Made by a program: the position numbers and the translations under genes | Assembly (NCBI GenBank): GCA_963710455.1 | Contig: CAVQAG010000017.1 | Coordinates: 323,225 to 387,224 of the forward strand | Source: an uncultured delta proteobacterium | GTDB taxonomy: Bacteria > Desulfobacterota > Binatia > Binatales > Binataceae | Reading direction: 5' to 3' | DNA: 64,000 nt | Notes under the pieces: generated by a model | Seen by the model: the letters and a program-made list of their open reading frames with translations, nothing else | What the model was told of the DNA's origin: nothing | Databases searched by the model: none | In this document: positions 24,861 to 53,314 of the stretch, piece after piece | Layout: every line of letters starts with the position of its first letter | Numbering within the stretch: position 1 is the stretch's first letter

Positions 24861-24861
24861 A

Positions 24862-26528: not shown

Positions 26529-27928
26529 ATGCGTCATCTGAATATCCGGCGGGTGCTGGTGCTGGCACTCCTTCTCCGCGCCTTACTCCCGATAGCGGGA
26601 TATCTGTATACGCGTGACGTTACCATCGTCTACACGCCTGACACAGCCTCCTATCTACTACCGGCCCGCGAACTAATCGCTCATCACCGGTTTTTTTCCG
26701 ACGGAACACCGGAAATCGTTCGAACTCCCGGTTATCCCCTGCTGCTCACGGCTGGGCTGCTGTTGGGTCATCCGGAATTCGTTACGATAGCGCTCCAGAT
26801 CCTGCTTAGTTGCCTCACGGTGTTCATGGTATATAAGACAGCTCGTGAGATGTTCGAGAGACGAACGAATAGCTCTCATTGCTGCGGCATTGTATGCGCT
26901 AGAGCCATTATCGATCTTGTTCTCAAGCCTGTTAGCTTCTGAAACTCTGTTCGCCGCGATAGTAATAGTCGGCTTTTACTACCTAGTGAGATACTTGAAA
27001 CGGCAATCGCCGGCATGCCTGCTAGCCTCGGGAGCCGCGCTGGCCGCTTCGGTATACATTCGGCCGGTAGGCTACTTTTTGCCAGTGATAATAGCTGTCG
27101 GGCTGACGGCGTGGGCTGCGGTCACGGCCCAGCAAAACAGGCCTCGGCGCATAGCTCAAGCCCTGGGCTTCGTTATCGTTTCCTTTGCGTTGACCAGTCT
27201 GTGGCAGGTTCGGAACGAGGCCGAGGCTGACTTATCCTGGTTTTTCTGCTATCGCCAGCGACAACATGTACTTCATTTTGGCGGCCTCGGTTCTGGCCGC
27301 CGAACAGCATGTGCCCTATTACGGGATGAGAGACCGCTTGGGCTATCAGAACCCGCGCGCTTATTTCCGGGAGCATCCTGAACAGAAGACTTGGTCTGTA
27401 GAGAAAAGAACCAATTATCTGACTCGGACCGCTGAGCATATTTTGCTGGGCGATTCGCTGACCTATGCGTGGATTTACTTCGACGGCGTTCTTCGAGGAA
27501 CCTTTGATCCTGGCTCTACCGAGTTTCTGCGGTTTTTCGACCTCTATCCAAGGGACGGCGGTCTTCTGACGGTTGCAGTCGACAAGGGCAGAATCGCAAC
27601 CGTCGAAGCGCTTTATGCCTATCCACTACTCTTTTGGAGCACCGCCATGATGCTCCTGATGCTGCTGATATACCTCTCGTCTGCGTGCGTCACACTCTGC
27701 AGCCCGGCAATCCAGGACCCTTCGATTCTGGCCGCGTGGTTAATAGCTAGCTACTATATGGCTATTGCGGGAGGACCCGGTGACTGGGGTCGGTTCCGGC
27801 ATCCCGTTATGCCGATCATCTGCACCCTGGCCGGCTATGGTCTATACGCAGTCTGGAGCCGGTTGCGCCACGACCACCGCACCGTCTCCAAAGCGCGAGA
27901 GATGATTCTCAGGTCCATCGCAAACTAG
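26529..27928 (+). pseudogene. GT-C-fold membrane glycosyltransferase (PMT_2/ArnT-like, GT39/GT83-type), split over three frames by two frameshifts
   Basis: The three consecutive ORFs 26529..26942, 26845..27381 and 27266..27928 are each hydrophobic and collinear with one polytopic protein. The family motif ...TPGYPLLLTAGLLLG... is present. Junctions lie near 26870-26880 and 27225-27240. Confidence 0.5.
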
Positions 27929-31186: not shown

Positions 31187-31201
31187 TGGCACAACGGTTG
31201 C
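31187..31201 (+). promoter_or_regulatory. sigma-54 (RpoN) -24/-12 promoter TGGCACaacggTTGCT upstream of the Wzy/O-antigen-ligase-like gene
   Basis: Exact match to the TGGCAC-N5-TTGCW consensus, seen directly. It is located ~90 bp upstream of the ATG at 31291 in a 460-bp intergenic region. Confidence 0.7.
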
Positions 31202-31290: not shown

Positions 31291-32823
31291 ATGGTGAAAA
31301 TGGCGGGACTCGACGCAACCGTGTTTACGTCGCCACCGCGCGAGCGCCCGAAGCCATTCGCCGCGCGGCTGATCATTCCTGCCGTCGCGGCGGGGCTGCT
31401 TCTGATCAGCCTTCAGGTCGAGCAAAGCAAGATGCTGATGGTGGTCGGTGGCCTCGGCGCGTTGCTCGTGGTTTTTTACGGCCTGCCGTTCGTGACGCGC
31501 CATCGTGACTGGCTGATTTGTGCCCTATTGATGGTGCTTCTTATCACCGGCATCTCGTTTCTCGATCCGACGACTCGCTCGCTCTTCCATTATTCAGCGC
31601 TCGCGCTGCTTTGTTTTCCGGTTCTAGGTATCGCGGTTCGCTCGGACGTTTTCCGCAGTGGCGGATTCCGCCTTTACACGGTCTATTTCCTATGGGCGGC
31701 GTGTACGATCCCTTATTCACTGGCGCCGGAATTCTCGTTGGCCCGGCTGGCTGAAGCATTTCTGACTTTGGCCGCGCTGGCGGCGATCGTGGTGGATGTT
31801 CGCGAGGCAGATGGCCCGAGGCGTCTCTTATCTCACATTCTGGTGGCCGCCGGAATAATACTTTTCGTAAACGTGCTTGCGGCCTTGATCTTGCCCCATA
31901 GCATCACGTGGCTGAGCCCGTTGGAAAGCTATAGCGCCGACGAATTGCAAAAGATGCAGAAGCTCGGAATTTCGCCGGCGGGCATGGACCGCTTCAGAGG
32001 GCTTCTCAGCGGGCCGAACGACTTGGGCGGGCTGATGTTGATCGTGGTTGGCCCGGCGCTCGTGTGTTGGCAGAGCGCGAGCAAACGCCAGCGCGCGCTT
32101 TTGGCGGCATTGGTGGCGGGGGCGGTGTCCCTGGCAGCGCTGGCCGATTCTCGATCTCCGTTTGTCGCACTGGCTATCGGTGGCGCGTGGTACTCGGTCT
32201 GGAGGTGGCGTGCGCGCGGGATTCTGGTATTGGCGGCGGCCACCACGATGCTCGGTGCGGCACTCCTTGTCTACTCGCATGGCGACCTGGGCGCGTACAT
32301 GGGACGCGATGTGGGTACCCTGACCGGACGTACCGATATCTGGAGCTTCGTAATACAGCAAATAAAAGCCCGACCCATCCTGGGCTATGGATACGAGGTA
32401 TCGGGGGCAATCTTCCAGAGCGTGTACTTTCCCGTCTGGTGGGGCCCTTGGGACCTCGGGCCGCATAGCTCACTGCATAATGGGTACCTTGATCATGCCG
32501 TCGGTGTAGGCATACCCGCCACCCTATTCTGGCTTTACATCATCCTCGAGCCATGGGTATTCGTGTTCCGCCGGTCCGGCGATAGTTGGAACCTTAAGCC
32601 GATTTTTTTCCTTATAGTTGTACCGATCCTGATCAATAACTTTTCGGAGGCACTTCTAGGCGATTTTACCGATAGCGTGGGCATCGTATTCGGCCTGGTC
32701 TGGGCGCTCGGCGAACGCTACCGCTTACTTGCCTTGCAACGGGCCGACACCGTCCGCGCCGAAACACTGGCGAGCCTGCCAGGGTCGCTAGCCGCATTGG
32801 CGGAGGCCGGTGAGGCACGTTGA
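31291..32823 (+). CDS. O-antigen ligase / Wzy_C-family membrane protein (polysaccharide or O-glycosylation ligase-like)
   Basis: About 12 TM segments with a Wzy_C-type periplasmic loop (...GRTDIWSFVIQQIKARPILGYGYEV...). 510 aa. Confidence 0.8.
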   Translation: MVKMAGLDATVFTSPPRERPKPFAARLIIPAVAAGLLLISLQVEQSKMLMVVGGLGALLVVFYGLPFVTRHRDWLICALLMVLLITGISFLDPTTRSLFHYSALALLCFPVLGIAVRSDVFRSGGFRLYTVYFLWAACTIPYSLAPEFSLARLAEAFLTLAALAAIVVDVREADGPRRLLSHILVAAGIILFVNVLAALILPHSITWLSPLESYSADELQKMQKLGISPAGMDRFRGLLSGPNDLGGLMLIVVGPALVCWQSASKRQRALLAALVAGAVSLAALADSRSPFVALAIGGAWYSVWRWRARGILVLAAATTMLGAALLVYSHGDLGAYMGRDVGTLTGRTDIWSFVIQQIKARPILGYGYEVSGAIFQSVYFPVWWGPWDLGPHSSLHNGYLDHAVGVGIPATLFWLYIILEPWVFVFRRSGDSWNLKPIFFLIVVPILINNFSEALLGDFTDSVGIVFGLVWALGERYRLLALQRADTVRAETLASLPGSLAALAEAGEAR

Positions 32824-37534: not shown

Positions 37535-37543
37535 GAGCAGCTG

Positions 37544-39424: not shown

Positions 39425-39450
39425 CTAGCGGATAAAAATATCGCGACGCT

Positions 39451-41979
39451 TCATTGCAGATCGCGGGCGCTGAGTCGGTCAGGCGGGGGGCGGTCAGCTT
39501 CGGCGGTCTCAGTCACTGTCGGGTGGGGCAGGTACAATCGCACTGTCGTGCCCCGCTGTTCCTCGCTAAAAATTTTCACATGCCCGCCGGATTGCTTGAC
39601 GAACCCATATACTTGCGAGAGTCCGAGACCGGTGCCCTGGCCGGTTTCCTTGGTGGTGAAGAAGGGATCGAAGGCGCGCTCGAGGACCGCCTTGCTCATC
39701 CCGATACCGATATCGGCGACCGAGATCATCACGTACTGGCCGGGCAGCAATCCGTGATGCTGTGTGCAGTACTCGTGGTCGAGATAGCTATTGGCCGTTT
39801 CTATCGTGATTTTACCGCCATCCGGCATCGCGTCGCGGGCATTGACGGCGAGGTTCAAAATCGCGCTTTCGAGCTGGTTGTGATCGGCGGAAACTCGCTC
39901 CGGATCCGCCGCCAGCAGCATCTCGATTCCGATATTGTCGCCGACCGTGGTGCGCAACAGTTCCGACATGTTGCTGACCAGCCGATTCACGTTCAGCGAT
40001 TCGGGTCTGAGCGGTTGCTTGCGGGCGAAAGCCAGTAGCCGCTGGGTCAGAGTCGCCGCGCGTTGTCCGCCGCGCACGGCGGCATCGGTGAGCCCAAGCA
40101 GTTCCTCGCCGAGCGGGAGGTTGGACGGGGCGACTCGCCGGCGCAGAGCGTCGAGGTTGCCCATGATCACCTGAAGCAGATTGTTGAAATCGTGCGCGAC
40201 GCCGCCGGTGAGTTGCCCAATGATCTCCATCTTCTGCGCCTGACGAAAAGCTTCCTCGGCCTGCATCCGCTCCTGGATTTCGGCCGCTACCCGCTGTTCG
40301 AGGGTTTCGTTGAGACCTCGCAGATTGTCCTCTGCGACGCGCCGATCATTGATGTCCTGCACGATGAGAACTACGTATTGCGGTCTGCGTTCGGGGCCAT
40401 CCAGCAGCGACACACTATTGGCAATCCAGGTGATCGATCCATCAGAACGCACCTTGCGTACTTCGATCGTAAAGGGCCGCCCGGTTTCGAACATCCGATT
40501 GAGCAATTCGTTGAAACGGCCTACGTCCTTGGAATACGTGAGATCGATCAGCCGGGTTCCGAGCAGCTCCTGCATCGAGCGGCCGACGATCTCGCAGTAT
40601 TTCCGGTTCACCAGGACATAGCGGCCGGCAAGATCGATCTGCGCGATACCCACGTTGGCTTCGGCGAAAATCGAGCGGAGCCCCGCAAGGTCTGTCGGCT
40701 CATAAACCGCCTGCAGCCTGCCCGCTTCGAGCCGCGAAAAATCGAGCAGCGTGTTGACGAGCTTTAAAAGCCGCAGGCCATTGCGGCGCAGTAGTTCAAG
40801 CTGTTTTCGTTCGACGGTGACCATGCCACTGCTGGTGCTGCGCAGCAGGTCCTCTATCGGGCTAAGCATCAGAGTGAGCGGCGTCCGGAATTCGTGACTG
40901 GCGTTGGAAAAAAACGTGGTCTTGGCGCGATCGATCTCGGCCAGCGCTTCGGCCCGGCGCTTTTCACGCTCGTATGCGCGGACGTCGGCCAGCCCGGCCG
41001 CAATCTGGCCGGCCAGCAGATCGATAAAGCCGCGATACGCACTGTCCAACGGACGGTAAGGATTCAGGCCGATGATCATCACGCCCGCTGGTTGATTCTG
41101 CGCCTGCTCGGCAATCGGAACCACGATCGCCTGGTGCGGCGGAATGTCCCAGCCTCCGGTCGGCAAATCGCCGAAACGGGAAACCAGATCATCGAGGATC
41201 AAGGCCTTCGATTCCGCCCACGCTTGCTTGATCGGCCATCCGCTCGCATCGAGCCGGAGCGATTGCGGCGCCGCACGATGACTCGTGTGAATTCCGGTGC
41301 TACAGGCTAGTTCAGCGCTCTCACCACTGCTGTCGATCAGATAGATCAGGCTGAACGGAAGATCGCGCTGATTGGTGGCCAGGCATTCGCAGACCATTGC
41401 GAACAAGCTTGCGGCGGTCTGTTGATTGGCTATTCGCGCGCCGATCTCCTGCAACATTCGCAACCGCCGCTCGCCGATAAAGCGTTCGGTGTCCTCGATA
41501 ACGACGCAAAGATGTCCGCCGATGCCCCCTTGGTCGTCGGGCAACGGACTATACGAAAAAGTATGAAAAGTCTCCTCCGGATATCCCGAGCGATGAAGAA
41601 TCAGCGGGAGGTCCTGGTCATAAGTAGCACGGCCGGTAGTCAGGACCTCTTCGAGTCTAGGACCGATCGCGTCCCAGATTTCCTTCCAGACCTCGCGCGA
41701 GGGTTTGCCCAAAGCCCACGGATGTTTGGTTCCGAGCGTCGGCGTATACGCGTCGTTGTAAAAAAAAGTGAGCTCCGGCCCCCAGCCCATCCACATCGCG
41801 TACCGGGAACTGATCATGATCTGAACTGCTGTTCGGAGGCTCTGCGGCCACGACGCGGGGGAGCCAAGCGGCATTTGCGACCATTCGAGGTCGCGCATTC
41901 GCCGTCCCACCTCGCCGTCCGCTGCAAAAAACTCGGAGCGGGCCACCCTCATGATCGACGAGCGCACATCATTATTCAT
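39451..41979 (-). CDS. multi-domain sensor histidine kinase (N-terminal PAS/GAF-like sensors, HisKA, PAS, second HisKA, HATPase_c)
   Basis: The first H-box is FFSNASHEFRTPLTLM with X-box LVNTLLDFSRLEAG. A PAS follows (VGIAQIDLAGRYVLVNRKYCEIVG). The second H-box is LTGGVAHDFNNLLQVIMGNLDAL, then N/G boxes ...NLAVNARDAM...GQGTGLGLS... Confidence 0.85.
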   Translation of the reverse strand: MNNDVRSSIMRVARSEFFAADGEVGRRMRDLEWSQMPLGSPASWPQSLRTAVQIMISSRYAMWMGWGPELTFFYNDAYTPTLGTKHPWALGKPSREVWKEIWDAIGPRLEEVLTTGRATYDQDLPLILHRSGYPEETFHTFSYSPLPDDQGGIGGHLCVVIEDTERFIGERRLRMLQEIGARIANQQTAASLFAMVCECLATNQRDLPFSLIYLIDSSGESAELACSTGIHTSHRAAPQSLRLDASGWPIKQAWAESKALILDDLVSRFGDLPTGGWDIPPHQAIVVPIAEQAQNQPAGVMIIGLNPYRPLDSAYRGFIDLLAGQIAAGLADVRAYEREKRRAEALAEIDRAKTTFFSNASHEFRTPLTLMLSPIEDLLRSTSSGMVTVERKQLELLRRNGLRLLKLVNTLLDFSRLEAGRLQAVYEPTDLAGLRSIFAEANVGIAQIDLAGRYVLVNRKYCEIVGRSMQELLGTRLIDLTYSKDVGRFNELLNRMFETGRPFTIEVRKVRSDGSITWIANSVSLLDGPERRPQYVVLIVQDINDRRVAEDNLRGLNETLEQRVAAEIQERMQAEEAFRQAQKMEIIGQLTGGVAHDFNNLLQVIMGNLDALRRRVAPSNLPLGEELLGLTDAAVRGGQRAATLTQRLLAFARKQPLRPESLNVNRLVSNMSELLRTTVGDNIGIEMLLAADPERVSADHNQLESAILNLAVNARDAMPDGGKITIETANSYLDHEYCTQHHGLLPGQYVMISVADIGIGMSKAVLERAFDPFFTTKETGQGTGLGLSQVYGFVKQSGGHVKIFSEEQRGTTVRLYLPHPTVTETAEADRPPPDRLSARDLQ

Positions 41980-42158
41980 TTTGCAAGAAACGAAGCAGCA
42001 AGAATCGGGCCCGCAGCCTGCATCCGCAGATCAACGTTTAGAATAAGCCATTCAATGCTCTGCAGCCGTTTACACCCGCGCGCAGGGCTGTCAGCATAGT
42101 TCGGAGAAACCTGTCCTGTCATCGCCGGTCGTGATGGACCTCCTCCGCAGGAGAACGA

Positions 42159-42530
42159 TTGAGTTCGTCCAGCCTTTTACTAGTCGACGATAACGACGAC
42201 GTGCGCGAAGTCACCGCGCTGCTGCTGCGCGATAGCGGATACGCTGTAATCGAGGCCTCCAGCGGTAACGCCGCGCTCGCCGCGCTCGACGCCAATCCGG
42301 CGATCGAGGTGCTGATCGTGGATTTTTCAATGCCGGGGATGTCGGGAATCGAGCTACTTGAACGGGCTCGCGCCAAGAAGCCGGAAATCAGGGCGGTGTT
42401 CATCACCGGGTATGTCGATAACACGTGGCTCGAAGGGAGGCTCGTCAACGAAATCGTGGTGAAGAAGCCATTTACGATGGCACAGCTCGCACCCGCGGTG
42501 CGCAAGGCTTTGGGCGAGTCCGAAATTTAA
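42159..42530 (+). CDS. single-domain response regulator (CheY-like receiver)
   Basis: LLLVDDNDDVRE...phospho-Asp in LIVDFSMPGMSG...conserved Lys in VVKKPF. 123 aa. It is divergent from the kinase gene. Confidence 0.8.
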   Translation: MSSSSLLLVDDNDDVREVTALLLRDSGYAVIEASSGNAALAALDANPAIEVLIVDFSMPGMSGIELLERARAKKPEIRAVFITGYVDNTWLEGRLVNEIVVKKPFTMAQLAPAVRKALGESEI

Positions 42531-42808
42531 GCCGCTCGCCGATTGGTGAAGGAGCCCAGCTTTTCGTTTTCGAGAAGCGCCTAGTCTTTAGACGCTTGCC
42601 CGGCGCATCAGCGCCGTCCGTACTCACGCCAAACACATTCCTTCGCTTCTTTTCAAGAGCCTGGAAAAACCTTCCGCCGATCGTAAAGTTAACCGCTTCC
42701 GGCGACGATTCATAACAAGGTTTTTTCTGGCGGCACAGTAGTTGCTGTAGTCACTTAGGTCGCAAACGCAACTATCTCTGCTGGATGCAGGTAAAGGGGC
42801 TAGATCAA

Positions 42809-43000
42809 ATGAATCAAGATCAGGTTAAGGGCAAGTGGAATCAGCTCAAGGGCGAAATCAAAAAGAAGTGGGCCAGGATGACCGACGACGATCTGCTGGA
42901 GACCGAAGGCGATATCGACAAGCTCTCCGGGAAAATCCAGGAGCGGACGGGCGATCGGAAGGAAGACATCCGCAAATGGCTTAACGAGCGCTACCAGTAA
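42809..43000 (+). CDS. csbD: CsbD-family general stress protein
   Basis: KGKWNQLKGEIKKKWARMTDDDLLETEGDIDKLSGKIQERTGDRKEDIRKWLNE is the CsbD/YjbJ signature. AAGGGG lies upstream of the ATG at 42809. Confidence 0.8.
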   Translation: MNQDQVKGKWNQLKGEIKKKWARMTDDDLLETEGDIDKLSGKIQERTGDRKEDIRKWLNERYQ

Positions 43001-43362: not shown

Positions 43363-45000
43363 TCAGCCTGCAGCAGTCTTCGCTTGACGGTCGAATCCCG
43401 GCAGGATCGCATTGACGAACCCGTTCTGGACGAATTGTATCAACGCCTGCCACGTACTCACATCCGGGTTGTTGAGTTTTCCGGACAAGTCGACTTTGGT
43501 CGCCACCTTTTGAGTCGACGAATTCTTGACTATCTTGGCAGCTGCTCCAACCGCTAACTCATAAGCCTGATGAGTAATCGATTTGTTCTTATCCTTGTCC
43601 GGATCGTAGACCTGCACGTCGCTAAATAGCGGTTTTACGTAGCCTACCATCCGTCCACGCCGGACATTGACCTGCGAGAAGACGGAAAGCTTCCCCTGCT
43701 TAACGTCAAACCTGCCATAAGCGCGCAGCAGGTTGTTCAGCGCCGGAAGGCTGGCGTCGCGGATCGCGAGATCGAGGTCGAAGTCCGAGCCGGGCTTCTC
43801 CGGACGAAACTCGCCGCTGATAACGATCTCGCCACTGTCCATGAACCGGCCCCGTAGCAGCATGTGGGCTGGACCTTCGGCAAAATGGTTGGATAAGTTT
43901 CTGATCTGAAGCTCCATATCGGAAATGGAGAGTTGGTAATGGGGCTCCTTGGTCTCATCGATGTACACTACCTGGCTACCGACGATCTGGAGCCTGGCGA
44001 TTCTTACCAGGGTTTGCGGAGCATTGTTGATTTTCTGGGTTCCCGCCTTCACCGCCGCCACGCGATGCTCCTCAGCGGCAGCGGTGGGTGTCGCATGGGT
44101 ATACGCAAATCGCCCGCCGGCGATCTTGATCTGATAGACGTCGACCTTTTCGATCTTGGGTCCATACTCAACGAACCCGTAGCTGGACAATATGCCGCCT
44201 TCCACGCTGGTGTTTACCCGACTGAGCTCAGGTTTGAATTGTGTGAGCGGCACATTTTCCAGACGATAGCTAACGGCGGCGCTGGCAACCGGCTTGGTCA
44301 GGAAGTTCGCGCTGCCCTTGATGCTCGCATGGCCCACATCGAAAACAGTTGCTTCAGCCTGTATGGGGGACGGATACGCTGTGGCAGCCGATCTCGCATT
44401 GCGGATGTTATCCGCAGTAACGTACAGGTGCTCAAGTCTAAGCGGCCGGTTAGGATCGGTATCCACGTAGACGGCGTCCCCATCTTCAATTGTGAAATGG
44501 TTGATCTTGAATGGATAAATGCTCTCTACGGCGTCCTGCCATCCTTTTTTGCTTAACGGTAATTTGTCCTTGTATTCGGCGCGCAACTGTATCAGATCAA
44601 TATGCAGCCGGGGATGAAAGAGAGACAGATCCGCCACGACGTGCCCGGTGAACAGGTCGCGCCACTCTATTTCCAAAGTAAAGATCGGGAACTGAGCCAC
44701 CGAGGTGCGCGGATGCAGTTTCTGGATCATCTTAAGGTCACGCAAGGTGAGCGTGAAGTCGACCAGGTTTAGATGCGCTCCGCCGAGGTGGGTTTCATAA
44801 CCCTTCAGCCTCGCATTCATATTTCTTTCGGCCCACGAGCGTATGGTGGGATCGAGCAAATATGATGCTGCCAATAGGATTACCAGACATCCAACAAACG
44901 CCACCGCCAACCACGATGCTACTCGCGCGCCACGAGATTGCCGCGGCCGCTCTGGCGCAGCCCGGCCATTGTCAGTCGAATCCTCCACAGCCATCGACAC
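43363..45000 (-). CDS. DUF748/AsmA-like membrane-anchored protein (outer-membrane biogenesis family)
   Basis: 545 aa with an N-terminal TM anchor and a long beta-rich periplasmic region. The family assignment is from overall pattern only. It sits in a lower-GC stretch. Confidence 0.55.
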   Translation of the reverse strand: MSMAVEDSTDNGRAAPERPRQSRGARVASWLAVAFVGCLVILLAASYLLDPTIRSWAERNMNARLKGYETHLGGAHLNLVDFTLTLRDLKMIQKLHPRTSVAQFPIFTLEIEWRDLFTGHVVADLSLFHPRLHIDLIQLRAEYKDKLPLSKKGWQDAVESIYPFKINHFTIEDGDAVYVDTDPNRPLRLEHLYVTADNIRNARSAATAYPSPIQAEATVFDVGHASIKGSANFLTKPVASAAVSYRLENVPLTQFKPELSRVNTSVEGGILSSYGFVEYGPKIEKVDVYQIKIAGGRFAYTHATPTAAAEEHRVAAVKAGTQKINNAPQTLVRIARLQIVGSQVVYIDETKEPHYQLSISDMELQIRNLSNHFAEGPAHMLLRGRFMDSGEIVISGEFRPEKPGSDFDLDLAIRDASLPALNNLLRAYGRFDVKQGKLSVFSQVNVRRGRMVGYVKPLFSDVQVYDPDKDKNKSITHQAYELAVGAAAKIVKNSSTQKVATKVDLSGKLNNPDVSTWQALIQFVQNGFVNAILPGFDRQAKTAAG

Positions 45001-45171
45001 AACCTCAAATGTTTTATTATCTGCCGCTCAGGGGTGATCCGTAGCTGCCGGCGCCAGCGCGCCGAATGTGATGATAGGAGAGGCGCGGCTTGAGCGGTTG
45101 GCGGAAGGTTGCCAAGCGTTGTATGCACCTCAAATCCGTTATGTACGCAGCAACCGCAGACTCTCCCGCGC

Positions 45172-45432
45172 TTATTGGGCGGGCTCAGGAGGTGAATAGG
45201 TCGTGGTCGACCGCTTTTGAACTACGCCACCATTGGGACTCGTCGTAGTGGTGGTGGTGGTGGTCTGTGATGAGGTTGAAGGAGGAGTCGTTACGACCGG
45301 CGCAGGCGGCGGGACTGTTCCATATTCGGTTGTGGTAGTGGTTTCCCTGGTGGCGGTCGGACCGCATGCAGAGCAAAAGCCGATACCAAAGGCGGCGATA
45401 GATACAGTAGCCCACGATTTCCAGTGTTTCAT
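45172..45432 (-). CDS. small Thr-rich secreted/lipoprotein (86 aa); paralog of 50609..50816
   Basis: GGAG lies 8 nt upstream of the ATG. A signal peptide ends ...GFCSAC, followed by a Thr/Pro-rich tail ending ...QKRSTTTYSPPEPAQ. Compare ...RQRSTTTYAP at 50609. Confidence 0.55.
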   Translation of the reverse strand: MKHWKSWATVSIAAFGIGFCSACGPTATRETTTTTEYGTVPPPAPVVTTPPSTSSQTTTTTTTTSPNGGVVQKRSTTTYSPPEPAQ

Positions 45433-45492
45433 TGGGTATACTCCGGGTAGATCGAAAACTTAAATGACGTGGCCGGGCTTTCGCGTGTGCTT

Positions 45493-45684
45493 TTATCGCG
45501 AGGGAACTTTAGCCCCCGACTTCCGCGCTTCGGAAAGCCCGATCGCGATTGCCTGTTTACGGCTCTTGACTTTCTTGCCGGATTTGCCGGACTTGAGTTT
45601 GCCGCGTTTCATTTCATGCATCGCCCGCCCAACTTTGGAGGAAGCCTTCTCGCCATATTTTCGGGATTTGCTCTTTGTCGCCAT
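45493..45684 (-). CDS. conserved small basic protein (about 63 aa, Lys/Ser-rich)
   Basis: MATKSKSRKYGEKASSKVGRAMHEMKRGKLKSGKSGKKVKSRKQAIAIGLSEARKSGAKVP resembles a widespread small basic hypothetical family. The longer 117-aa track ORF has an implausible N-terminal extension. Confidence 0.45.
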   Translation of the reverse strand: MATKSKSRKYGEKASSKVGRAMHEMKRGKLKSGKSGKKVKSRKQAIAIGLSEARKSGAKVPSR

Positions 45685-46086
45685 AGTTACTAACCGTAGG
45701 TGAGGTTGTTTCAAGCCGCGCGCGACGCGCACTTTCGTATATAGATCGGCCGCAAAAGCCCTCAGCTTGATTGTTTTCTCGCGTATAAACGAAATCATGG
45801 CGGCCTCGTCATAAACTATGACTATATGAAAATCCCGTGCCGACAATTTCTACATCTGTTCTCGTCGACTATAGCTTGAATTTGTTAGGCACGATCGCGC
45901 GTCTTGGACTCGCGGAGTGGCACAAATTACGTTGTGCGTTGACCGGTTTGAAATAGCCGGACTGATTTGAAGAGGCGAACTGGCAGCAGAGCGCCATCAT
46001 CGCCAGTGCGAGGATTGGGCTCTATCCCCTGCCTCGCCTGTGAAGCTTGGGCGCAGAGCCACCTTTAGAACTGTCAGTGGCCGGGA

Positions 46087-47484
46087 CTACTCTTCTTTGA
46101 GATGGTTGTAGAGGGTTTTCAGCGAGACGCCGAGAATTTCCGCGGCCTTGGCCTTGTTGCCACCGGTAAATTTGAGCGTCTGCAAAAGAAGCTCGCGTTT
46201 CACCGCGCTTAGCGACATGCCCACGTGTATATCGAGAGCGGGATGGCCTTGGCCGTTGTCTGGTTTGAAGGCCGCGGGCGGACTAGGTTTTACGCTATCT
46301 GGCATATCGAACGTGATCTCCTCTGGCAGGTCTGCCGTCGAGATCATCGGCCCGCGTGTAACGATAAGCGCCCGTTCGATAACGTTGCGCAACTGCCTTA
46401 CGTTGCCCGGCCAGCGCTGAGCCTTGAGCAACTCGAGACATTCCGCTTCCATGCCGACCACCGCTTTGCCCGCGGCGGGGGCCAGTTGCTGAAGAAAATG
46501 TTCGATCAGGGTCGGAATATCCTCGGCGCGCTCGCGGAGAGTGGGCAGTTGAATCGTGAAAACGTTGAGTCTGTAGTACAGATCCTCGCGGAACTTTCCG
46601 TCGCGCAACTGGCCTTCCAGGTTGCGATTGGTTGCGGCTAATACGCGTACGTCGACAGGAATCTCGGCACTACCGCCCAGGCGGCGAATCTTCCGTTCCT
46701 CGAGCACCCGCAAGAGCTTCGCCTGCAATTCCGGCTTCATCTCGCCGATCTCGTCGAGCAGGAGAGTTCCGCCGCCGGCTAATTCGAAACAGCCCTCGCG
46801 GCGGCGATCGGCGCCGGTGAAGGCTCCCCGCTCGTGGCCAAACAGCTCGCTTTCCATCAGCGTCTCGGGCAGGGCGGCGCAGTTGATAGCGATGTAAGGA
46901 CCGCTGGACCGCGGCGACAGCTCATGGATGGTGCGCGCAGCGAGTTCCTTGCCAGTACCGCTTTCACCCACGATGACGATCGAGGCACTGCTCGGCGCGA
47001 CTTGATCGATGGCGGCCATTACGCGGCGCATCGCGAGCGATTGTCCTATCAGCTGCCCCAGTTCGCCGGCATCCATCAGGCGGCGGCGCAAAAGCTGGTT
47101 TTCTTTGCTGACCGTCAGATGGGTGCGCAGATTGTTGAGCAGCACCTCCATGTGATGCGGATCGACGGGCTTGCGCAGATAGTCATAGGCCCCGAGCTTT
47201 ATCGATTGAACGGCGTCGTCGATATCGCCCTCGCCGGAGATCACGATGGTCGGAATCTGCCAGCCGTTTGCACGGATTTCGCGAAGCACCGCCAGGCCGT
47301 CTTTTTTCGGGAGCCTCAGGTCGAGCAGGAGGATTTGCGGGTCGGAGCTTTCAATCAACTGCAAAGCCCGTTCGCCGTCTTCAGCGTTCTCCACCCGGTA
47401 GCCCCAAGACGAGATCAAGGTGGACCACGCTTCCCGCGCGTCCGAGTTGTCCTCGACAATGAGTACTTTGATGCCGGCTTTCAT
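46087..47484 (-). CDS. sigma-54-dependent transcriptional activator (NtrC family: REC + AAA+ + Fis HTH)
   Basis: Receiver KVLIVEDNSDARE...LLLDLRLPKKDG, Walker A GESGTGKE, GAFTGA (ERGAFTGA), and the C-terminal HTH ...AAEILGVSLKTLYNHLK. There is no adjacent kinase gene. Confidence 0.9.
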   Translation of the reverse strand: MKAGIKVLIVEDNSDAREAWSTLISSWGYRVENAEDGERALQLIESSDPQILLLDLRLPKKDGLAVLREIRANGWQIPTIVISGEGDIDDAVQSIKLGAYDYLRKPVDPHHMEVLLNNLRTHLTVSKENQLLRRRLMDAGELGQLIGQSLAMRRVMAAIDQVAPSSASIVIVGESGTGKELAARTIHELSPRSSGPYIAINCAALPETLMESELFGHERGAFTGADRRREGCFELAGGGTLLLDEIGEMKPELQAKLLRVLEERKIRRLGGSAEIPVDVRVLAATNRNLEGQLRDGKFREDLYYRLNVFTIQLPTLRERAEDIPTLIEHFLQQLAPAAGKAVVGMEAECLELLKAQRWPGNVRQLRNVIERALIVTRGPMISTADLPEEITFDMPDSVKPSPPAAFKPDNGQGHPALDIHVGMSLSAVKRELLLQTLKFTGGNKAKAAEILGVSLKTLYNHLKEE

Positions 47485-48772
47485 AGTAATCGCATTCGCT
47501 ACTGGACTACTCATTCGCCCAAAAGAATGTTCCGAGTGAGGATGCCCGCCCGCTTCGGCCGCACGCACTAATTTTAAGAAATAGGAACGCGCGATCTGTT
47601 CCAGGCTGTCCCCGGCCGATAATCCCGCCGTCGCGCGATGCCAAATGATAGCATCAATGATGCCATTCTCTGAGCTTCGATTGTCACAGATCAGCCTTAT
47701 AAGGCGTCCGAAAACAGAGGCGTGAATGCGTGACCAAGACTGATGTCCAGCGCATTTTGTAACATTTCCATTTTGTCGGCCGCAAACTGGCTGTTATTTC
47801 GTGGATTGATCGCCGACCTTGCACAACGGCCAGCGCGACGTATTCGATCAGATGACCGAAGGTTGGCCATGCGTCGTCAAACCCTCACCTACGCGCGCGC
47901 CGCGCATGCTGAGCGTCGCTCAGAGCGCTCCAAGCTAGTTCCGCATGAGCGCGGTCCGAATCGACCGCGACAATGCGATTAGCGAGAGCCCTTGTTTTGC
48001 TATGGGAAGCGATCGCCCGAGTAATCGTATGTCGCGCAGGCGACGGGGGTTGACCGTCGCGACCACGAGGAGAAATTGCTCGAAGGTCATCCCCAAATGA
48101 CGAAATCCGCCCTGGTAGAAAATGAAGGCGTAAAAATCCACCAGCTCGTCCGGCATCGCCGGTGGCAGCTCAGGACGGGCAGCGGCCAGCCGAAATGCTC
48201 GGACGTTCCGTGCCTGGTTGGCAAGATGAGATCTCCGACGAATTGCCGGCGACGATGACTCGTTCGAGTCAACAGATGGACGCGAAGCGACGTTAACCGA
48301 TGGCATCGCGCTCACGCTTTGAGCCTCCGAACGGGACTTGACCTGGCTGAGGAGAAGTGGACCGCCGCGCGGAAGGTGCAGAGGCCCGAACGAAAAAGGG
48401 GGGGGTAGGATTTTCATTCGGAACAAGTCCGCGCGGCGGTCGGGCGTTTGGAGACCATAAGAACCAGTAGCTGCCTTGAGCAACAGCTATGCCGAACGTC
48501 TCTGCTAACGATACGCTGCTTTTGCGTGCGCTTTTGGTTGTTGTCTCTCTCGTCAGATTGCAAAATTTTCAAAGGTGTTTGAAATTATCCTCCTCAGTAC
48601 GTTTTACATAGACCAGCTTAAATGTCGGAAAGTTTAGAGACCCCGAAGCGACAGACTACAAATTGTCCTGCGTTAACCCAGGGGGACGGCAGGTCGCGTG
48701 AACGGAAGGTTCGACAAGGTCTGTGGATATTTGTGATTAAAACATCAAAAATCGAGGCTCATCATCGTCTAC

Positions 48773-48787
48773 TGGCACGGCGCTTGC
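48773..48787 (+). promoter_or_regulatory. sigma-54 (RpoN) -24/-12 promoter CTGGCACGgcgcTTGCC, 38 bp upstream of the ExeA-like ATPase gene
   Basis: Exact match to the extended consensus YTGGCACG-N4-TTGCW, seen directly. It is divergent from the sigma-54 activator gene across a 1.3-kb mostly non-coding region. Confidence 0.75.
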
Positions 48788-48825
48788 CCAAGCATCCAGC
48801 GACATAAAGAACATAACCGACGCCC

Positions 48826-50501
48826 ATGTACTACAGACACTTCCGCCTGACGGGCCCACCCTTCGAAGCTTTGGCGGGCCCCGAAGCTCTCTACCTCAGC
48901 CGGGCTCATCGCGAAAGCCTGGCGGCTTTGGAGTGGGGTCTGCTGCATGAGCCAAGTGGCTTTACCACCCTGATCGGAGAAACCGGCACCGGTAAAACCA
49001 CCCTGGTATCTTCCATCCTTGCGCGCAATTTCACCCAGCTGCGCGCGGCCTACGTCATAAATCCGAAGCTCTCATTCGAAGATATCCTGCGCGTCGTCCT
49101 CGGCCAGTTCGGCATTCCATGTACGGAGCCAAACAAGCTGGATCGCATAGAGGCACTGGTCGGTTTCCTCCGCGCTCGGACGCCGAGCGAGCGGCTGGCG
49201 ATAATCGTTGACGAGGCCCAGGGCCTCAGTGACGAGGCTCTCGAAGAGCTCCGCCTGTTGTCGAACTACGGGCAGCGGATCGGGAAATATCTGCAACTCG
49301 TCCTGGTCGGGCAACCGGAACTGGGGCTACGTCTGAAAAGCCCATCATTGCGGCAGTTCAACCAGCGAGTGGCCGCGCGTTCAGTGCTCAGCCGGCTGAG
49401 TTTTGCAGAGGCCCATGAATACGTTGAATATCGATTGCGCGCGCGGGACGGACGCATCAAGGATATTTTCGAATCCGACGCTCTGGACTACCTTCTCCGC
49501 CATAGCGCAGGAATTCCCCGCCAAATCAACGTGCTATGCCACAACGCGTGCTGCTGGCGTATTCTTACGGATCGCCGCTGGTGGAACTCAAAGCCGCCAG
49601 GGCGGCAGTAGCCGATCACGGCGAGTCGCTACTGGCAACTTGGACTCTGGCTATTCCGTCCAAGCGCATACAGCCTATATATGTTGGGGTCGCCGCGCTG
49701 GGACTGCTGCTCATTGCCGGATATGGCTATAGGGCGGTGCCCACGCATGCACCGCCGATCAACGCCGACGCATCGGCGGCCGTCTCGATGCGGGCGGTAC
49801 GGGAAAACAGTGGGGCGCCGCTTCAGGCAGCGCGAGAGTCCAAAGCATCATTCAAGCCCATGGCGAAATCGGTAGCAGCGCCCGCACCTCTAGCCCCACC
49901 GCTCCACCGGGAGGCCGAGGACGCAAGCTCGGTTGATAGTAAATCTATTGACCCCCCGCGCACTTTGCCGCCGGGAGAGGCCGTGCGCGGCAAAGAGGTC
50001 CAGCAGCAAAATAGCAAGATCACGGCGAGCCTCGTCTTCCCTGCCGTGCCGCAGCCTGCTCAGCCGGACGTACAACACGCAAATCTGGATCACGCAAATC
50101 TGGATCCCTCAAGTCTGCGCGAAAAAAATCCGAACGAAGAAATTGGCGAAGCGCGCAACGCACAACAACCGTCAGACGACTCGGGCGCGTCCATCGCCCA
50201 AGAAGGCGATCATCAGCGCAGCATCGTGGTCAAATATGGGGACACAATGGAGAAGCTCGCGCTTCGTCACCTGGGTTCCCGTTATGCGCTCAATGAACTG
50301 ATCGACAACAACCCTCAGATAACAGACATCAACAGAATTTATCCCGGACAGAGAGTCTACCTGTCTCGATCAGAACCAAACGAGGCTGGCGAATCGCCCG
50401 CATCCGAGACCGGCTCTCAACCCCCGCCTTCACTCGCGGGCAATACCTCGCACATCGATGACTCCAAGATGTCGAGTTCTGCCCGCGCCGGCAAAAACTG
50501 A
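48826..50501 (+). CDS. ExeA/GspA-like AAA+ ATPase with a TM segment, Pro/Ala-rich linker and C-terminal LysM domain; frame broken near 49545-49555
   Basis: The N-terminus MYYRHFRLTGPPFEALAGPEALYLSRAHRESLAALEWGL...GETGTGKTT is collinear with ExeA/MshM/TIGR03015-type ATPases (frame of 48826..49611). Continuation ...NALLAYSYGSPLVELKAARAAV..., the TM segment PIYVGVAALGLLLIAGYGY, and the LysM IVVKYGDTMEKLALRHLGSRYALNELIDNNPQITDINRIYPGQRVYL lie in the frame of 49536..50501. Confidence 0.7.
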
Positions 50502-50608
50502 CAAACTTAGCGATTCTAGTTTTCAGTCCATCCGCACTCCGGACGGCCGAAGCCCGCTTCGCCGCATCCGAACTCGGCCGTCCGGCTTTCATGAAAACTT
50601 ACGGGACC

Positions 50609-50816
50609 TTACGGCGCGTAAGTTGTGGTCGAACGTTGCCGCACGCTTCCATCGTCGCTTTGCGTGGTAGTACTGGTCGTCGTGCTTGGGGCAGATGGCT
50701 CGGCCACTGCCGGAGTTTCGGTTTCGGTCTTATGGTAACTGAAACATCCGGTCGCCAGGACCATTGAAAGTCCTGCAATAGCCAAGGTGATCGTATGTAT
50801 TAGTTTCCGCATCATA
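50609..50816 (-). CDS. small Thr-rich lipoprotein (about 68 aa); paralog of 45172..45432
   Basis: GGAGG lies 7 nt upstream of the second ATG of MMRKL. The signal peptide has a lipobox-like LATGC, followed by a Thr-rich tail ...TTTSTTTQSDDGSVRQRSTTTYAP. Confidence 0.6.
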
Positions 50817-51122
50817 TGGCCTCCAAAAATCGTACTATATCGAGATGAAACTGAGATTCCGGCATTCGCCGTCTGATAATGAAAGTCTGCACCTCCTGTG
50901 CCAACCACGGCGCATAGTGATCAAAGGACGAAGGCCCTGGATTTGTTGTGCGTGTTACATGCGCACACAAATTCGTTCATTCGCCTATGATGATAAAACT
51001 CGCGCTCAAGTCCGCGATGGCGCGACTGAGTATTTGACCGTTTTACAGGGCCGCGATCTCCTTGACCAAGGGAGCTCGCGGTAAAATATTCGCTCAACCC
51101 GCGAAGGCGTCAGCGATTCGAA

Positions 51123-51527
51123 TCAGGATTTTTTTATCTGGATCTCGCCACCGAGGAGGGACTCGCCGGTAAATTCGGAAACCGGGCGATACTCGATGCT
51201 CGGCGTAACTGGTGGATTGCGCGAAGGATCGAGCGGCGGTAGGCGGGAGTTCCGTTTCGCGGCCGCTTCCACCAGCGCGGTGTCGGGCCGCCACGGTTCG
51301 GCATCGTTGTTGCGGACGGCAGTTCCGCGAAAATCGTAGCGCATCCAGTAAACCGTACGCATCGCGACGCCTGCGGGATCACGATGCAGATGCGTGTAAA
51401 GCCATTTCTCGTTGAAACAGACGCCGTCCTCTTCGCGTTCCCGCGGATCGTCGAGGCTGCCCTCGGTACGGTCGGGCGTGCCGAGAATCGCGACAATCGC
51501 ATTGCGGGCCGGCCGATGATCGTTCAT
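51123..51527 (-). CDS. hypothetical protein, last gene of the nuo-like operon
   Basis: The ORF continues directly after the nuoEF stop; the start is assigned at MNDHRPARNAIVAILG. No recognisable domain. The N-terminal part of the 175-aa track ORF overlaps nuoEF and is probably not translated. Confidence 0.4.
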   Translation of the reverse strand: MNDHRPARNAIVAILGTPDRTEGSLDDPREREEDGVCFNEKWLYTHLHRDPAGVAMRTVYWMRYDFRGTAVRNNDAEPWRPDTALVEAAAKRNSRLPPLDPSRNPPVTPSIEYRPVSEFTGESLLGGEIQIKKS

Positions 51528-53314
51528 ATCTCGAAGCTCTGCGGAAAGGGGCATCGATGTTGCGCGATGTGCGCCTCGAAGTCGGCGCGGAACTGCTTGA
51601 GGAACGCGCGCGCGGCCCACGACGCGCCGTCGGCGAGCGCGCAAATACATTTGCCGTCCATGAAATCGAAAGTATCGGCCAGCGTCTCGAGGTCCTGCGG
51701 CGTGCCTTGGCCGCTTTCAATCCGGCCGAGCGTCTTGTAGGTCCATCCGGTGCCCTCGCGGCATTGGGTGCACTGGCCGCACGATTCATGCTCGAAGAAA
51801 CGCGCGACCACCAGCGCGGTGCGTACCATGCAGGTGCGTTCGTCCATCACGATCACACCGCCAGTGCCGATCAGCGTACCGGCCGCGCGCAGCGATTCGT
51901 GATCCATCGCGACGTCGATCTGGTCGCCGCGCAACACCGGCATCGAGACGCCGCCCGGGATAACCGCCTTGATCGCCCGGTCGCCGATAACCCCGCCGGC
52001 GTGCTGATAGATGAGGTCACGCAGCTTCACGCCGAGCCTGAGCTCGAAAATTCCGGGATTGTTGACGTGGCCGCTGACGCCGAACAGCGTGTGGCCCGCG
52101 GCATTCTTGACCCCCTCGTCGAGAAACCACTGCGCGCCCCGCTTCACGATCGCCGGCACGTGCGAAAGGGTCTCGACATTGTCGACGGTGGTCGGCTGGC
52201 CCCACAATCCCACCTGCGCGGGAAAGGGCGGACGCTTGCGCGGCTGGCCCTTGCGGCCTTCCATCGATTCCAGCATCCCGCTCTCCTCGCCGCAGATATA
52301 GGCGCCAGCGCCCTGCTGGATCGTGATATCGAAGCGGCGGTTGAAGCCGAGCGCGTTGTCGCCGAGAATCCTGGCCTCGTACAGGCGGCGGATTGCCGCG
52401 CTCATCGCCGCGAACTCCTCGACGTATTCGCCGCGGATGTAGATGAAGGCCGCGGTCGACTCCATGGCCATCGCGGCGATCATGATTCCCTCCAGCGGCA
52501 GGAACGGATTGCGCGCCATGATCTGGCGATCCTTGAAAGTGCCGGGCTCACTTTCGTCGGCGTTGACCGCGAGGTAGCGGGGACGCGCGTCGCGCGGCGG
52601 CATGAAGGTCCACTTGAGCCCGGTGACGAAACCGGCGCCGCCGCGGCCGCGCAGGTTGGCGTCTTTGACCAGCGTGGCGAGTTCTTTGGGCGCAATCTCG
52701 CCCGCCTTGCGCACGGCTTCGAATCCGCCGTGCCCGCGGTAGTCCTCGAGGGTCAGCCATTTCTCGTCGCCACGGGGCAGCAGGTAGCCGTCGACGCCGT
52801 CGGGAACGCGCGAGATGATCGGCGCAGGCCGGCGCGCGGCGAGCGCGGCGTCGGGCGATTCGAGCAGACCTGCGGCGATCTCGGGCGTCACGTTTTCCAG
52901 GTATGGATTGCGATTTACCTGTACCACCGGCGCAGTCGCACACGAGCCGAGACATTCGACTTCCACAATCGCAAAGCGGCCGTCGGGCGTTGCGGTGCCC
53001 GACTTTATTCCAAGGCGGCCCTCGAGCTCGCGCACCACGCCGCGCGCGCCACGCAGGCAGCACGGAAGATTGGTGCAGACCTGGATAACCGCCTGCGCGC
53101 GGGGCAGGTTGAAGAGCGAATAGAAGGAAGCGACCTCGGCGACCTCATTGGGGCGCATCGCGAACAGCGGCGCCAGCTCGGTGAAAGCTTCGGGACCAAG
53201 CGCGCCCAGGTCGTCGCGCGCGAGATAGATTGCCGCGAGCAACGCGCCGCGCGGATTGGGAAAGCGCGCCTGCTCGGCGCGGATCTTTGCCTGCGTTTCA
53301 GCCGACAAGCCCAT
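51524..53314 (-). CDS. nuoEF: fused NADH-quinone oxidoreductase subunits E and F (24-kDa [2Fe-2S] thioredoxin-like domain + 51-kDa FMN/NADH-binding [4Fe-4S] subunit)
   Basis: The N-terminal NuoE part carries CTNLPCC...ECLGSCATAPVVQVN (4 Cys). The NuoF part carries GRGGAGFVTGLKW (FMN), the NADH-binding Gly-rich region, and ESCGQCTQCREG...C (N3 cluster). Single 596-aa ORF. Confidence 0.9.
   Translation of the reverse strand: MGLSAETQAKIRAEQARFPNPRGALLAAIYLARDDLGALGPEAFTELAPLFAMRPNEVAEVASFYSLFNLPRAQAVIQVCTNLPCCLRGARGVVRELEGRLGIKSGTATPDGRFAIVEVECLGSCATAPVVQVNRNPYLENVTPEIAAGLLESPDAALAARRPAPIISRVPDGVDGYLLPRGDEKWLTLEDYRGHGGFEAVRKAGEIAPKELATLVKDANLRGRGGAGFVTGLKWTFMPPRDARPRYLAVNADESEPGTFKDRQIMARNPFLPLEGIMIAAMAMESTAAFIYIRGEYVEEFAAMSAAIRRLYEARILGDNALGFNRRFDITIQQGAGAYICGEESGMLESMEGRKGQPRKRPPFPAQVGLWGQPTTVDNVETLSHVPAIVKRGAQWFLDEGVKNAAGHTLFGVSGHVNNPGIFELRLGVKLRDLIYQHAGGVIGDRAIKAVIPGGVSMPVLRGDQIDVAMDHESLRAAGTLIGTGGVIVMDERTCMVRTALVVARFFEHESCGQCTQCREGTGWTYKTLGRIESGQGTPQDLETLADTFDFMDGKCICALADGASWAARAFLKQFRADFEAHIAQHRCPFPQSFEI

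Follow-up and report, generated by a model that had tools for sequence, protein, structure and literature searches.

A conserved Binataceae gene cluster that appears to place an ExeA-like ATPase and small envelope- and stress-type proteins behind sigma-54 promoters

Introduction

What does an ExeA-like ATPase do when its gene stands alone, behind a sigma-54 promoter and opposite an NtrC-family activator? The question is raised by a 64,000-nt stretch of DNA from an uncultured soil bacterium of the family Binataceae (the window), in which the ATPase is followed by a transmembrane (TM) helix and a LysM domain. To our knowledge, the one understood function of ExeA/GspA-like ATPases is to help secretins get through peptidoglycan. 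A preliminary description of the window had read the locus as an orphan activator, a non-coding interval and a stand-alone ATPase gene between two small lipoproteins. We compared it with six orthologous Binataceae loci (L001 to L006; gene tables were annotated only for L001 and L002), the closest genomes being ‘MFD’ metagenome-assembled genomes (MAGs) and Candidatus Binataceae MAGs. The locus is real, conserved and better organised than that description had it. Over about 8 kb of this Binataceae cluster, sigma-54 promoters appear to drive an ExeA-like ATPase, two Thr-rich lipoproteins, small stress-type proteins and the cluster's own activator. The cluster is a new combination of familiar components, not a new type of system.

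Results

Promoters

Six sigma-54-type promoters, P0 to P5, lie between 42.7 and 50.9 kb of the window, and the borders first drawn for the unit are therefore too narrow. As a criterion we used TGGCAC-N5-TTGC with the GG and GC 10 nt apart, pointing at a gene and conserved among orthologs. P4 (TGGCACGGCGCTTGC, 48773..48787, plus strand) is a perfect match 38 nt before the ATPase ATG at 48826. Perfect TGGCAC-N5-TTGC elements occur twice in the 64 kb, against 0.12 expected, and one is found 44-61 nt before the ATPase ATG in all six orthologous loci. When the seven sequences are aligned the mean column identity is 56%, and the bases of P4 are among the few invariant columns; the promoter first proposed at this position is thus upheld by its invariance. 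The columns of P3 (CGGCATAGCTGTTGC, 48480..48494, minus strand), which is divergent from P4 and lies 165 nt upstream of a small open reading frame (ORF), are likewise invariant in all seven.

The remaining elements are placed in a comparable manner. P2 (TGGCATCATTGATGC, 47651..47665, minus strand) lies 167 nt upstream of the activator start and is kept before the activator in L001, L003, L004, L005 and L006, a conservation that implies autoregulation. P1 (CGGCACAGTAGTTGC, 42731..42745, plus strand) lies 40 nt upstream of csbD, matches nine of the ten consensus positions with GG and GC kept, and recurs at the equivalent place in L001, L003 and L006. P5 (TGGCACAGGAGGTGC, 50889..50903, minus strand), also a nine-of-ten match, is 74 nt upstream of the gene for mini-lipoprotein B and has a counterpart, TGGCACAAGAGGTGC, at the equivalent place in L001-L004. 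P1, P2, P3 and P5 are each kept at the homologous place in three to six of the orthologous loci. P0 (CGGCAC-GGGAT-TTTC, 45828..45842, minus strand), which precedes the genes for a DUF6496 protein and mini-lipoprotein A, has a variant -12 element, TC instead of GC, and for this reason is called sigma-54-like only; its 21-mer GGCACGGGATTTYCATATAGT is identical in L001, L003 and L004, and L006, which lacks DUF6496, has TGGCACGGGATTTTCA directly before mini-lipoprotein A. As a control, four weaker matches in coding DNA (at 44918, 46605, 46940 and 50696) have no counterpart in L001, where the DNA is about 80% identical, whereas all five of the intergenic, correctly oriented elements do.

On this arrangement, P4 is the predicted promoter of the ATPase gene and P3 that of the ~105-aa protein encoded by the small ORF and, in relatives, also of the sensor-kinase and receiver genes ahead of the activator. 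The activator would be under its own sigma-54-type promoter, P2, and the csbD, DUF6496/mini-lipoprotein A and mini-lipoprotein B units carry predicted elements as well. Between P3 and P4 lies a shared control region (48495..48772) in which the alignment reveals conserved blocks, namely an A/T dyad, TTGCAAAATTTTCAA (also found in L001 by an inverted-repeat search), GTTTTACAT and GTCGGAAAGTTTAG; these are candidate enhancer or bending sites.

Whether a single activator serves all six promoters is a separate matter. No enhancer motif common to the six was found above chance in k-mer scans against shuffles, inverted-repeat searches or the intersection of conserved k-mers, and control by one activator is therefore unproven. 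The window also holds a second histidine kinase/activator pair on the plus strand (kinase 23547..24860, NtrC-type activator ~24860..26271), and a single regulon is for both reasons treated here as hypothetical. It is possible, if the less expected outcome, that the six promoters do not form one regulon, the adjacent activator controlling a part of them (for example P2-P4) and the others answering to different sigma-54 activators. The missing common motif and the second pair speak for such a division, as do the interleaving of DUF748 and other genes and a perfect sigma-54 site that lies outside the island, at 31187 ahead of a Wzy_C gene; against it, csbD, mini-lipoprotein A, the activator and the ATPase remain linked even in distant L006, and every transcription unit between 42.7 and 50.9 kb except DUF748 has an element.

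Three further observations concern sigma-54 elements in these genomes. The site outside the island (31187..31201, plus strand) is the second perfect TGGCAC-N5-TTGC of the window and lies ~90 nt before the gene for an O-antigen-ligase/Wzy_C-type membrane protein (31291..32823, plus strand), which may connect surface polysaccharide with regulation by sigma-54. In L025 and L026, Binataceae loci with a third class of ExeA-like paralog, perfect TGGCAC-N5-TTGC elements stand 238-271 nt upstream of the start of the match, L025 and L006 being parts of one MAG; regulation by sigma-54 may recur in the ExeA-like family. An A/T tract, GGAAWnTTTTAC(C/A) or TTGnAAAnTTTTCAA, is repeated 60-180 nt before P2, P3/P4 and P5 (window 47700..47760, 48553..48620 and 51060..51090, and the orthologous places in L001-L006); it was seen by eye, without statistical support, and may be a bend or binding site.

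The ATPase and its relatives

The first part of the ATPase (residues 1-241, 48826..49548, plus strand) is a P-loop domain of the ExeA/COG3267 type, has the N-terminal motif Y..HF.L...PF, the Walker A sequence GETGTGKT and a DEAQ box, and matches AAA_22 (PF13401) with 80.4 bits (E 1.9e-22). The second part (49549..50501, plus strand) comprises a TM helix (49668..49724), an Ala/Pro-rich linker, a LysM domain (50226..50360) and a disordered tail. The helix is the single hydrophobic one (residues 282-300) and has Lys/Arg before it; the linker that follows is of 165 residues, 17% Ala and 12% Pro; and the LysM domain (PF01476) scores 26.2 bits against a gathering cut-off of 20.9, with a weak match to the YgaU-type model NF008399. 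Hydropathy, composition and Pfam therefore all agree with the order of TM helix, Pro/Ala-rich spacer and LysM that had been read from the sequence. Among the orthologs in L001-L006 the ATPase domain is 83-94% identical and the C-terminal half 33-55%. Invariant residues are Y2, H5, F6, P12, F13, G54, G56, K57, T58 and D129-Q132 in the ATPase domain, and G472, D473, T474, N496, P497, P507 and G508 in LysM. In a comparison with solved structures only the LysM part was matched, weakly (SafA LysM, 7r1l).

The preliminary description had presented LysM in the place of PG_binding_1 as something unusual, and this does not hold. At least 1305 relatives were found at E ≤ 0.001, and most of the 120 matches listed carry PF13401 together with PF01476; names given to relatives by JGI include ‘ExeA’, ‘general secretion pathway protein A’ and ‘ExeA/LysM repeat protein’. 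The AAA_22, TM and LysM architecture is widespread and already auto-annotated, and a search of the literature brought up no paper on either ExeA-LysM proteins or TIGR03015.

TIGR03015, the ATPase of XrtA/PEP-CTERM loci, is the best curated model: the ortholog P0001 scores 209 bits against a cut-off of 324.5, with 257 of 269 model positions covered, and P0064, a paralog from an exopolysaccharide (EPS) locus, scores 245 bits, again under the cut-off. The profile searches that had been suggested thus returned PF13401 and LysM outright and TIGR03015 as the best model at a score under its cut-off. Besides falling short of that score, the protein differs from TIGR03015 in its added TM helix and LysM domain, and the window copy lies outside polysaccharide loci, not at an exosortase/PEP-CTERM exopolysaccharide location.

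The likeness to TIGR03015 extends to gene context, since paralogs occur among genes for outer-membrane polysaccharide export (OPX), chain-length determinant and bacterial tyrosine kinase (BY-kinase)-like proteins, a group that is related to the exopolysaccharide genes of PEP-CTERM loci. The distant homologs P0064, P0045 and P0090 share one repeated gene order: Poly_export (OPX), a chain-length determinant (polysaccharide co-polymerase, PCP), the ATPase-LysM protein, a protein of 257-273 aa weakly similar to BY-kinases, enzymes of sugar modification, an initiating transferase and a Wzx flippase. A GNVR match in the chain-length determinant was obtained for the P0064 locus only, and in such a locus PEP-CTERM-type models are matched by OPX, PCP and ATPase alike, each below its cut-off. 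The same order is found in the Binataceae loci L009, L015, L016, L018-L020 and L024; no exosortase was seen in these EPS loci. Since L018 and the ortholog L004 are in one MAG, that genome has both an EPS-locus copy and a stand-alone copy, the latter gene being the one that lies between signalling genes and nuo genes.

The obvious comparison is with GspA/ExeA of the type II secretion systems (T2SS) of Aeromonas and Vibrio. GspA binds peptidoglycan and together with GspB gets secretins through the wall, and so provides a precedent for a peptidoglycan-binding AAA+ ATPase with a TM segment; it is thought to act on the wall so that a large envelope structure can pass (PMC9239104). The window protein shares a cytoplasmic P-loop domain of the same family, one TM segment and a periplasmic peptidoglycan-binding module. 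It differs in having LysM and not PF01471, which is absent from the window ORFs and the homologs listed; in lacking the cysteine-peptidase-like periplasmic region, which was not found in the window protein; and in being encoded by a stand-alone gene with a sigma-54 promoter, with no adjacent gspB or secretin gene in the window, L001 or L002. In Pfam scans of 47 of the larger window ORFs, which make up most of its coding sequence, there were no secretion, pilus or exosortase genes, as the preliminary description had noted for secretion.

The protein might still be a true GspA/ExeA (or MshM) homolog that assembles a T2SS or type IV pilus (T4P) secretin encoded elsewhere, with LysM in place of PF01471. 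Its ExeA-family N-terminal motif, its P-loop/DEAQ organisation and the ExeA/GspA names given by JGI fit this, and the GspA plan of cytoplasmic AAA+ domain, one TM segment and periplasmic peptidoglycan binder is matched (PMC9239104). We nevertheless consider it very unlikely: neither the window Pfam scans nor the gene tables of L001 and L002 contain GspB, secretin, T2SS or T4P genes, PF01471 and the peptidase-like region are missing, the best curated match is to the ATPase of PEP-CTERM loci, and the paralogs examined occupy polysaccharide export loci rather than secretion loci.

Activator and signalling genes

The activator (46087..47484, minus strand) is a 465-aa NtrC-family protein with a receiver, an AAA+ domain (GAFTGA) and a Fis-type helix-turn-helix. 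Pfam scores are 98 bits for Response_reg, 238 bits for Sigma54_activat and 40 bits for HTH_8, with AAA_lid_14 also matched, and both the phospho-acceptor context ILLLDLRLP and ERGAFTGA are readable in the translation, as expected of an NtrC-family bacterial enhancer-binding protein; the family first assigned to this gene is therefore correct. None of the NCBIfam equivalog cut-offs is reached (AtoC 434 against 714, NtrC 413 against 559, PrsR-type 407 against 502.6 bits), and we therefore regard the protein as a generic NtrC-family activator of no named subfamily. Orthologs in L001 and L003-L006 are 79-96% identical, and in all five loci showing both genes the activator is 1.3-8 kb upstream of the ATPase on the opposite strand. 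Its absence from L002 is uninformative, because that contig ends 1.7 kb past a kinase, before the activator could appear.

The activator had been called an orphan, and indeed no kinase is adjacent to it; but a GAF-PAS histidine kinase gene (39451..41979, minus strand) and a stand-alone receiver gene (42159..42530), the latter directly before the csbD promoter, lie 4-8 kb away, and orthologous loci have kinases between the activator and the ATPase. In L003-L006 these kinases are located between P3 and the activator: P3 is followed by the small ORF (where present, in L006) and then by sensor kinase and/or receiver genes down to the activator. L002 has P3, the small ORF and then a hybrid kinase. 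From the arrangement in L002-L006 we conclude that, ancestrally, the ATPase gene stood divergent to a signalling operon driven by sigma-54. In the window the decayed C-terminal end of the receiver domain of a hybrid histidine kinase can still be recognised at 47798..47938 (minus strand) by tblastn, with E 3.7e-9 against the intact kinase of L004 and 2.7e-7 against that of L006, an in-frame stop and a 3-aa gap. The activator has been orphaned through deletion of its kinase genes, of which this is the remnant. L001 has a 90-aa gene (8779..9051, minus strand) that looks chimeric, a response-regulator end (GAADFLVRPFEPE) being joined to the receiver tail of a hybrid kinase, and this chimera marks the same deletion.

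The interval of ~1.3 kb between activator and ATPase, described as non-coding, thus holds P2, P3 and the kinase remnant, and in addition a leader hairpin and a conserved small gene, as had been guessed in the same description. The gene (47935..48315, minus strand) has a GTG start with GGAGG upstream and encodes 126 aa here and ~105 aa in orthologs, the ORF in the window having lost the ancestral stop codon. Orthologous ORFs are present in L001, L002 and L006. The protein belongs to an uncharacterised family whose members are typically of ~100 aa. One search gave 85 homologous clusters; another, of 1.84 billion proteins, gave 135 representatives, almost all of ~40-170 aa. The core FYAFIFCQGGFRxLGMTFEQFLLVVA is invariant or nearly so, the invariant part being FxQxGF...TFEQFL. 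AlphaFold (AF2) predicts a helical core with block-mean pLDDT of 81-94; the protein had no match in Pfam, NCBIfam or PADLOC, Foldseek found no fold match in the PDB, and distant family members showed no linkage to ExeA-like genes.

The leader of P3 contains a long inverted repeat (48360..48441, minus strand; outer arms GACCGCCGCGCGGA and TCCGCGCGGCGGTC) with a minimum free energy of -63.1 kcal/mol (z -5.8). Its 14 GC-rich outer pairs are preserved in five of five loci with zero compensatory changes, and the repeat also has an inner stem. Each arm includes the palindrome CCGCGCGG, and because of this an RNA structure and paired protein-binding DNA sites are indistinguishable; the repeat could be either an RNA hairpin or paired DNA sites. 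It is not a repeated element, the arm sequence having no other exact copy in the window. Rfam gave zero matches in the whole window at gathering scores and in 47400..48900, which includes the hairpin, at E ≤ 1.

The broken reading frame

In the window the ATPase frame is broken: a base is missing at 49548/49549 (the A of Met242), which leaves two ORFs, 48826..49611 and 49536..50501, that overlap. The ~558-aa ATPase of the preliminary description is therefore right in size once the base is restored, which gives 558 aa, but the window itself holds two overlapping ORFs. At the break the window reads AACGCG-TGCTG and all six orthologous DNAs read AACGCGATGCTG in a DNA alignment. Once repaired, the protein can be aligned over its full length with proteins of 559-564 aa that are each encoded in a single ORF, the identity being 67-72%.

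One explanation would make the split functional: 48826..49611 would yield a soluble ATPase, and translation from the ATG at 49536 a second, membrane-bound LysM protein. That ATG is in frame and both ORFs are open, but the relatives found, down to 88% identity, are all single ORFs that read NAMLLAYS across the break site, and the break falls within the conserved ATPase lid and not at a domain border. A functional split is accordingly the explanation to which we give the least credence, and we regard it as extremely unlikely.

The missing base could also be a true deletion. The site does not lie in a homopolymer, and in the window the ATPase gene has CGACG as its Shine-Dalgarno sequence, against GGAGG in five of six orthologs and GGGGG in the sixth; together these allow real decay. 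The assembly appears, on the other hand, to be prone to indels, as judged from at least two further conserved genes of the window that are split and from NuoEF, which is likewise split in the related MAG locus L003. The two are a CoA_transf_3 gene (1607..2647, minus strand), in which profile positions 78-262 are in one frame and 255-366 in the other with a junction at ~2089-2112, and a PMT_2 glycosyltransferase gene (26529..27928, plus strand) in two or three pieces with breaks at ~26845-26942. The preliminary description had set a genuine pseudogene against a sequencing error; the frameshift is confirmed, and an assembly indel is considerably likelier than a real deletion at 49548/49549, because all relatives keep the base and other genes of the window are frameshifted.

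It is unlikely, in our judgement, that the whole module is decaying here, with a real frameshift, the ATPase a young pseudogene and the activator stranded without a kinase. Such decay would account for a one-base deletion relative to six of six orthologs outside a homopolymer, for the change from GGAGG to CGACG, for kinase genes reduced to a 140-nt remnant and for a small ORF without its ancestral stop codon. It sits poorly with a P4 that is still perfect, with the 317 codons past the shift that are open and conserved, LysM included, with the intact ATPase of L001 despite the same kinase deletion, and with the indel-prone assembly that the split CoA-transferase, PMT_2 and NuoEF genes suggest.

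Neighbouring genes

The two small Thr-rich proteins flanking the unit are paralogs, as had been noticed from their tails: mini-lipoproteins A and B are 36% identical (E 3e-5) and share the Cys, a Thr run and DG.V..RSTTTY.P, with a common ...RSTTTY(S/A)P tail. Mini-lipoprotein A (86 aa; 45172..45432, minus strand) ends in QKRSTTTYSPP and has orthologs in L001, L003 and L006. Mini-lipoprotein B (68 aa; 50609..50815, minus strand), placed correctly before except that its start is at 50815 and not 50816, has the lipobox LATG-C and the tail RQRSTTTYAP, is 73-89% identical in L001-L004 and belongs to a narrow family of 19 clusters. Both had been called lipoproteins. For B this fits an acceptable lipobox, L-A-T-G-C, but that of A, (F/V/L)-C-(S/T)-A-C (F-C-S-A-C in the window), is off consensus with a Cys at -3, the lipobox Cys itself being invariant in the alignment. 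A 12-bp GC-rich inverted repeat (50539..50585) lies between the convergent genes for the ATPase and mini-lipoprotein B and is a possible two-way terminator hairpin without a U-tail; the stem is present in the fold, and the whole segment is unremarkable (z -1.0).

On the other side of the activator, csbD (42785..43000, plus strand) encodes a CsbD-like small stress protein of 71 aa (Pfam CsbD, 68.6 bits) that is 75-93% identical and syntenic in L001, L003 and L006. Upstream of mini-lipoprotein A is the gene for a small basic DUF6496 protein of 63 aa (45493..45684, minus strand; Pfam 75.5 bits), 87-95% identical in L001, L003 and L004. The DUF748 gene interleaved in the island has a faint YhdP match on its L001 ortholog. 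The linkage of csbD, mini-lipoprotein A, activator and ATPase persists in L006 even though its ATPase is only 58% identical in the best segment.

Some observations lie at the margins of the island. From 34601 to 42530 there are two alpha-amylase-family genes, trehalose-synthesis-like by our reading of the Pfam matches, followed by the histidine kinase and the receiver. A conserved ORF (51123..51650, minus strand), 83-87% identical in L001-L003, overlaps the end of the fused NuoE-NuoF gene (51524..53314); it sits between P5 and nuoEF and has no family match. A defence system was considered and rejected, PADLOC having returned only generic P-loop and enhancer-binding protein matches. No tRNAs were found in the window, and a consensus scan of 45000..51200 for sigma-70 promoters and terminators was uninformative.

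Discussion

We favour, with moderate confidence, the reading of this locus as a compact sigma-54-dependent envelope or stress island conserved in Candidatus Binataceae, with a role for its ATPase on the wall. The phosphorylated activator would open P2-P4 and perhaps also P0, P1 and P5, and through P2 and P3 there would be positive feedback. The ATPase would sit in the inner membrane with its NTPase domain in the cytoplasm and its LysM domain on peptidoglycan, and would be made together with the small stress-type and lipoprotein products. It is probably a stand-alone paralog of the EPS-locus ATPases, whose genes are placed between a chain-length determinant and a BY-kinase-like gene, as the MAG with L004 and L018 suggests. 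By analogy with these paralogs and with GspA/ExeA, its most likely role is on the wall, where it may multimerise in a nucleotide-dependent manner and help an envelope-spanning assembly or a surface polymer to pass or attach to peptidoglycan.

Several points weigh against this reading. The kinases are lost in the window and in L001, and a second NtrC-type activator is encoded in the window. The window copy of the ATPase gene is frameshifted and its Shine-Dalgarno sequence altered. Among the promoters, P2 and P3 match eight of ten consensus positions each, P0 has TC where the -12 GC is expected, and the six have no common enhancer motif. The envelope or stress setting is one that the neighbours (CsbD, DUF748 and trehalose-type genes) suggest by their position. 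No secretin, PCP or OPX is encoded beside the stand-alone ATPase gene.

A bolder version would take the ATPase-TM-LysM protein, the two mini-lipoproteins and the ~105-aa protein as a self-contained, sigma-54-induced device that works without a secretin or polysaccharide exporter, its task under stress being to tether or remodel wall and outer membrane. We think this quite improbable; if true, it would be a new job for ExeA-like ATPases.

Among characterised systems, PspF-psp and ZraSR-zraP combine an enhancer-binding protein with divergent or adjacent sigma-54 promoters, small envelope-associated proteins and autoregulation. The island shares with them an activator, divergent sigma-54 promoters, small putative envelope-associated products and, by implication, autoregulation; it differs in having no PspA or ZraP homologs, in an activator that falls below the PspF and ZraR cut-offs, and in its cargo of an ExeA-like ATPase and mini-lipoproteins. 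Enterobacteria have a set of small stress-induced envelope proteins under RpoS control, among them OsmB, the entericidins, the LysM protein YgaU/Kbp and YjbJ/CsbD. Tiny lipoproteins, a CsbD-family protein, a LysM wall binder and trehalose genes nearby recall this set, but the Thr-rich lipoproteins have no homology to OsmB/Ecn, control is by sigma-54 and not RpoS, and LysM is fused to an ATPase. The PEP-CTERM system offers a third comparison, its genes being RpoN-dependent and associated with a PrsK/PrsR pair (PMC9850573); here the activator is below the PrsR cut-off and no exosortase was seen. By cut-offs and gene context, then, the activator is not a PrsR member, and the ATPase is a member of neither GspA nor TIGR03015.

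The value of the analysis lies in comparative annotation and a testable model, and specialists will not be surprised by it. The locus shows a two-component pathway that has been stripped by deletion. It also ties a LysM-bearing branch of ExeA-like proteins to polysaccharide export loci, with one copy detached from them and, alongside mini-lipoproteins and proteins of stress type, placed under tight control by sigma-54. If our inference holds, wall-anchored P-loop ATPases would have a wider role in envelope assembly, and Binatota, an uncultured and globally distributed phylum, would have a small regulon defined by its promoters.

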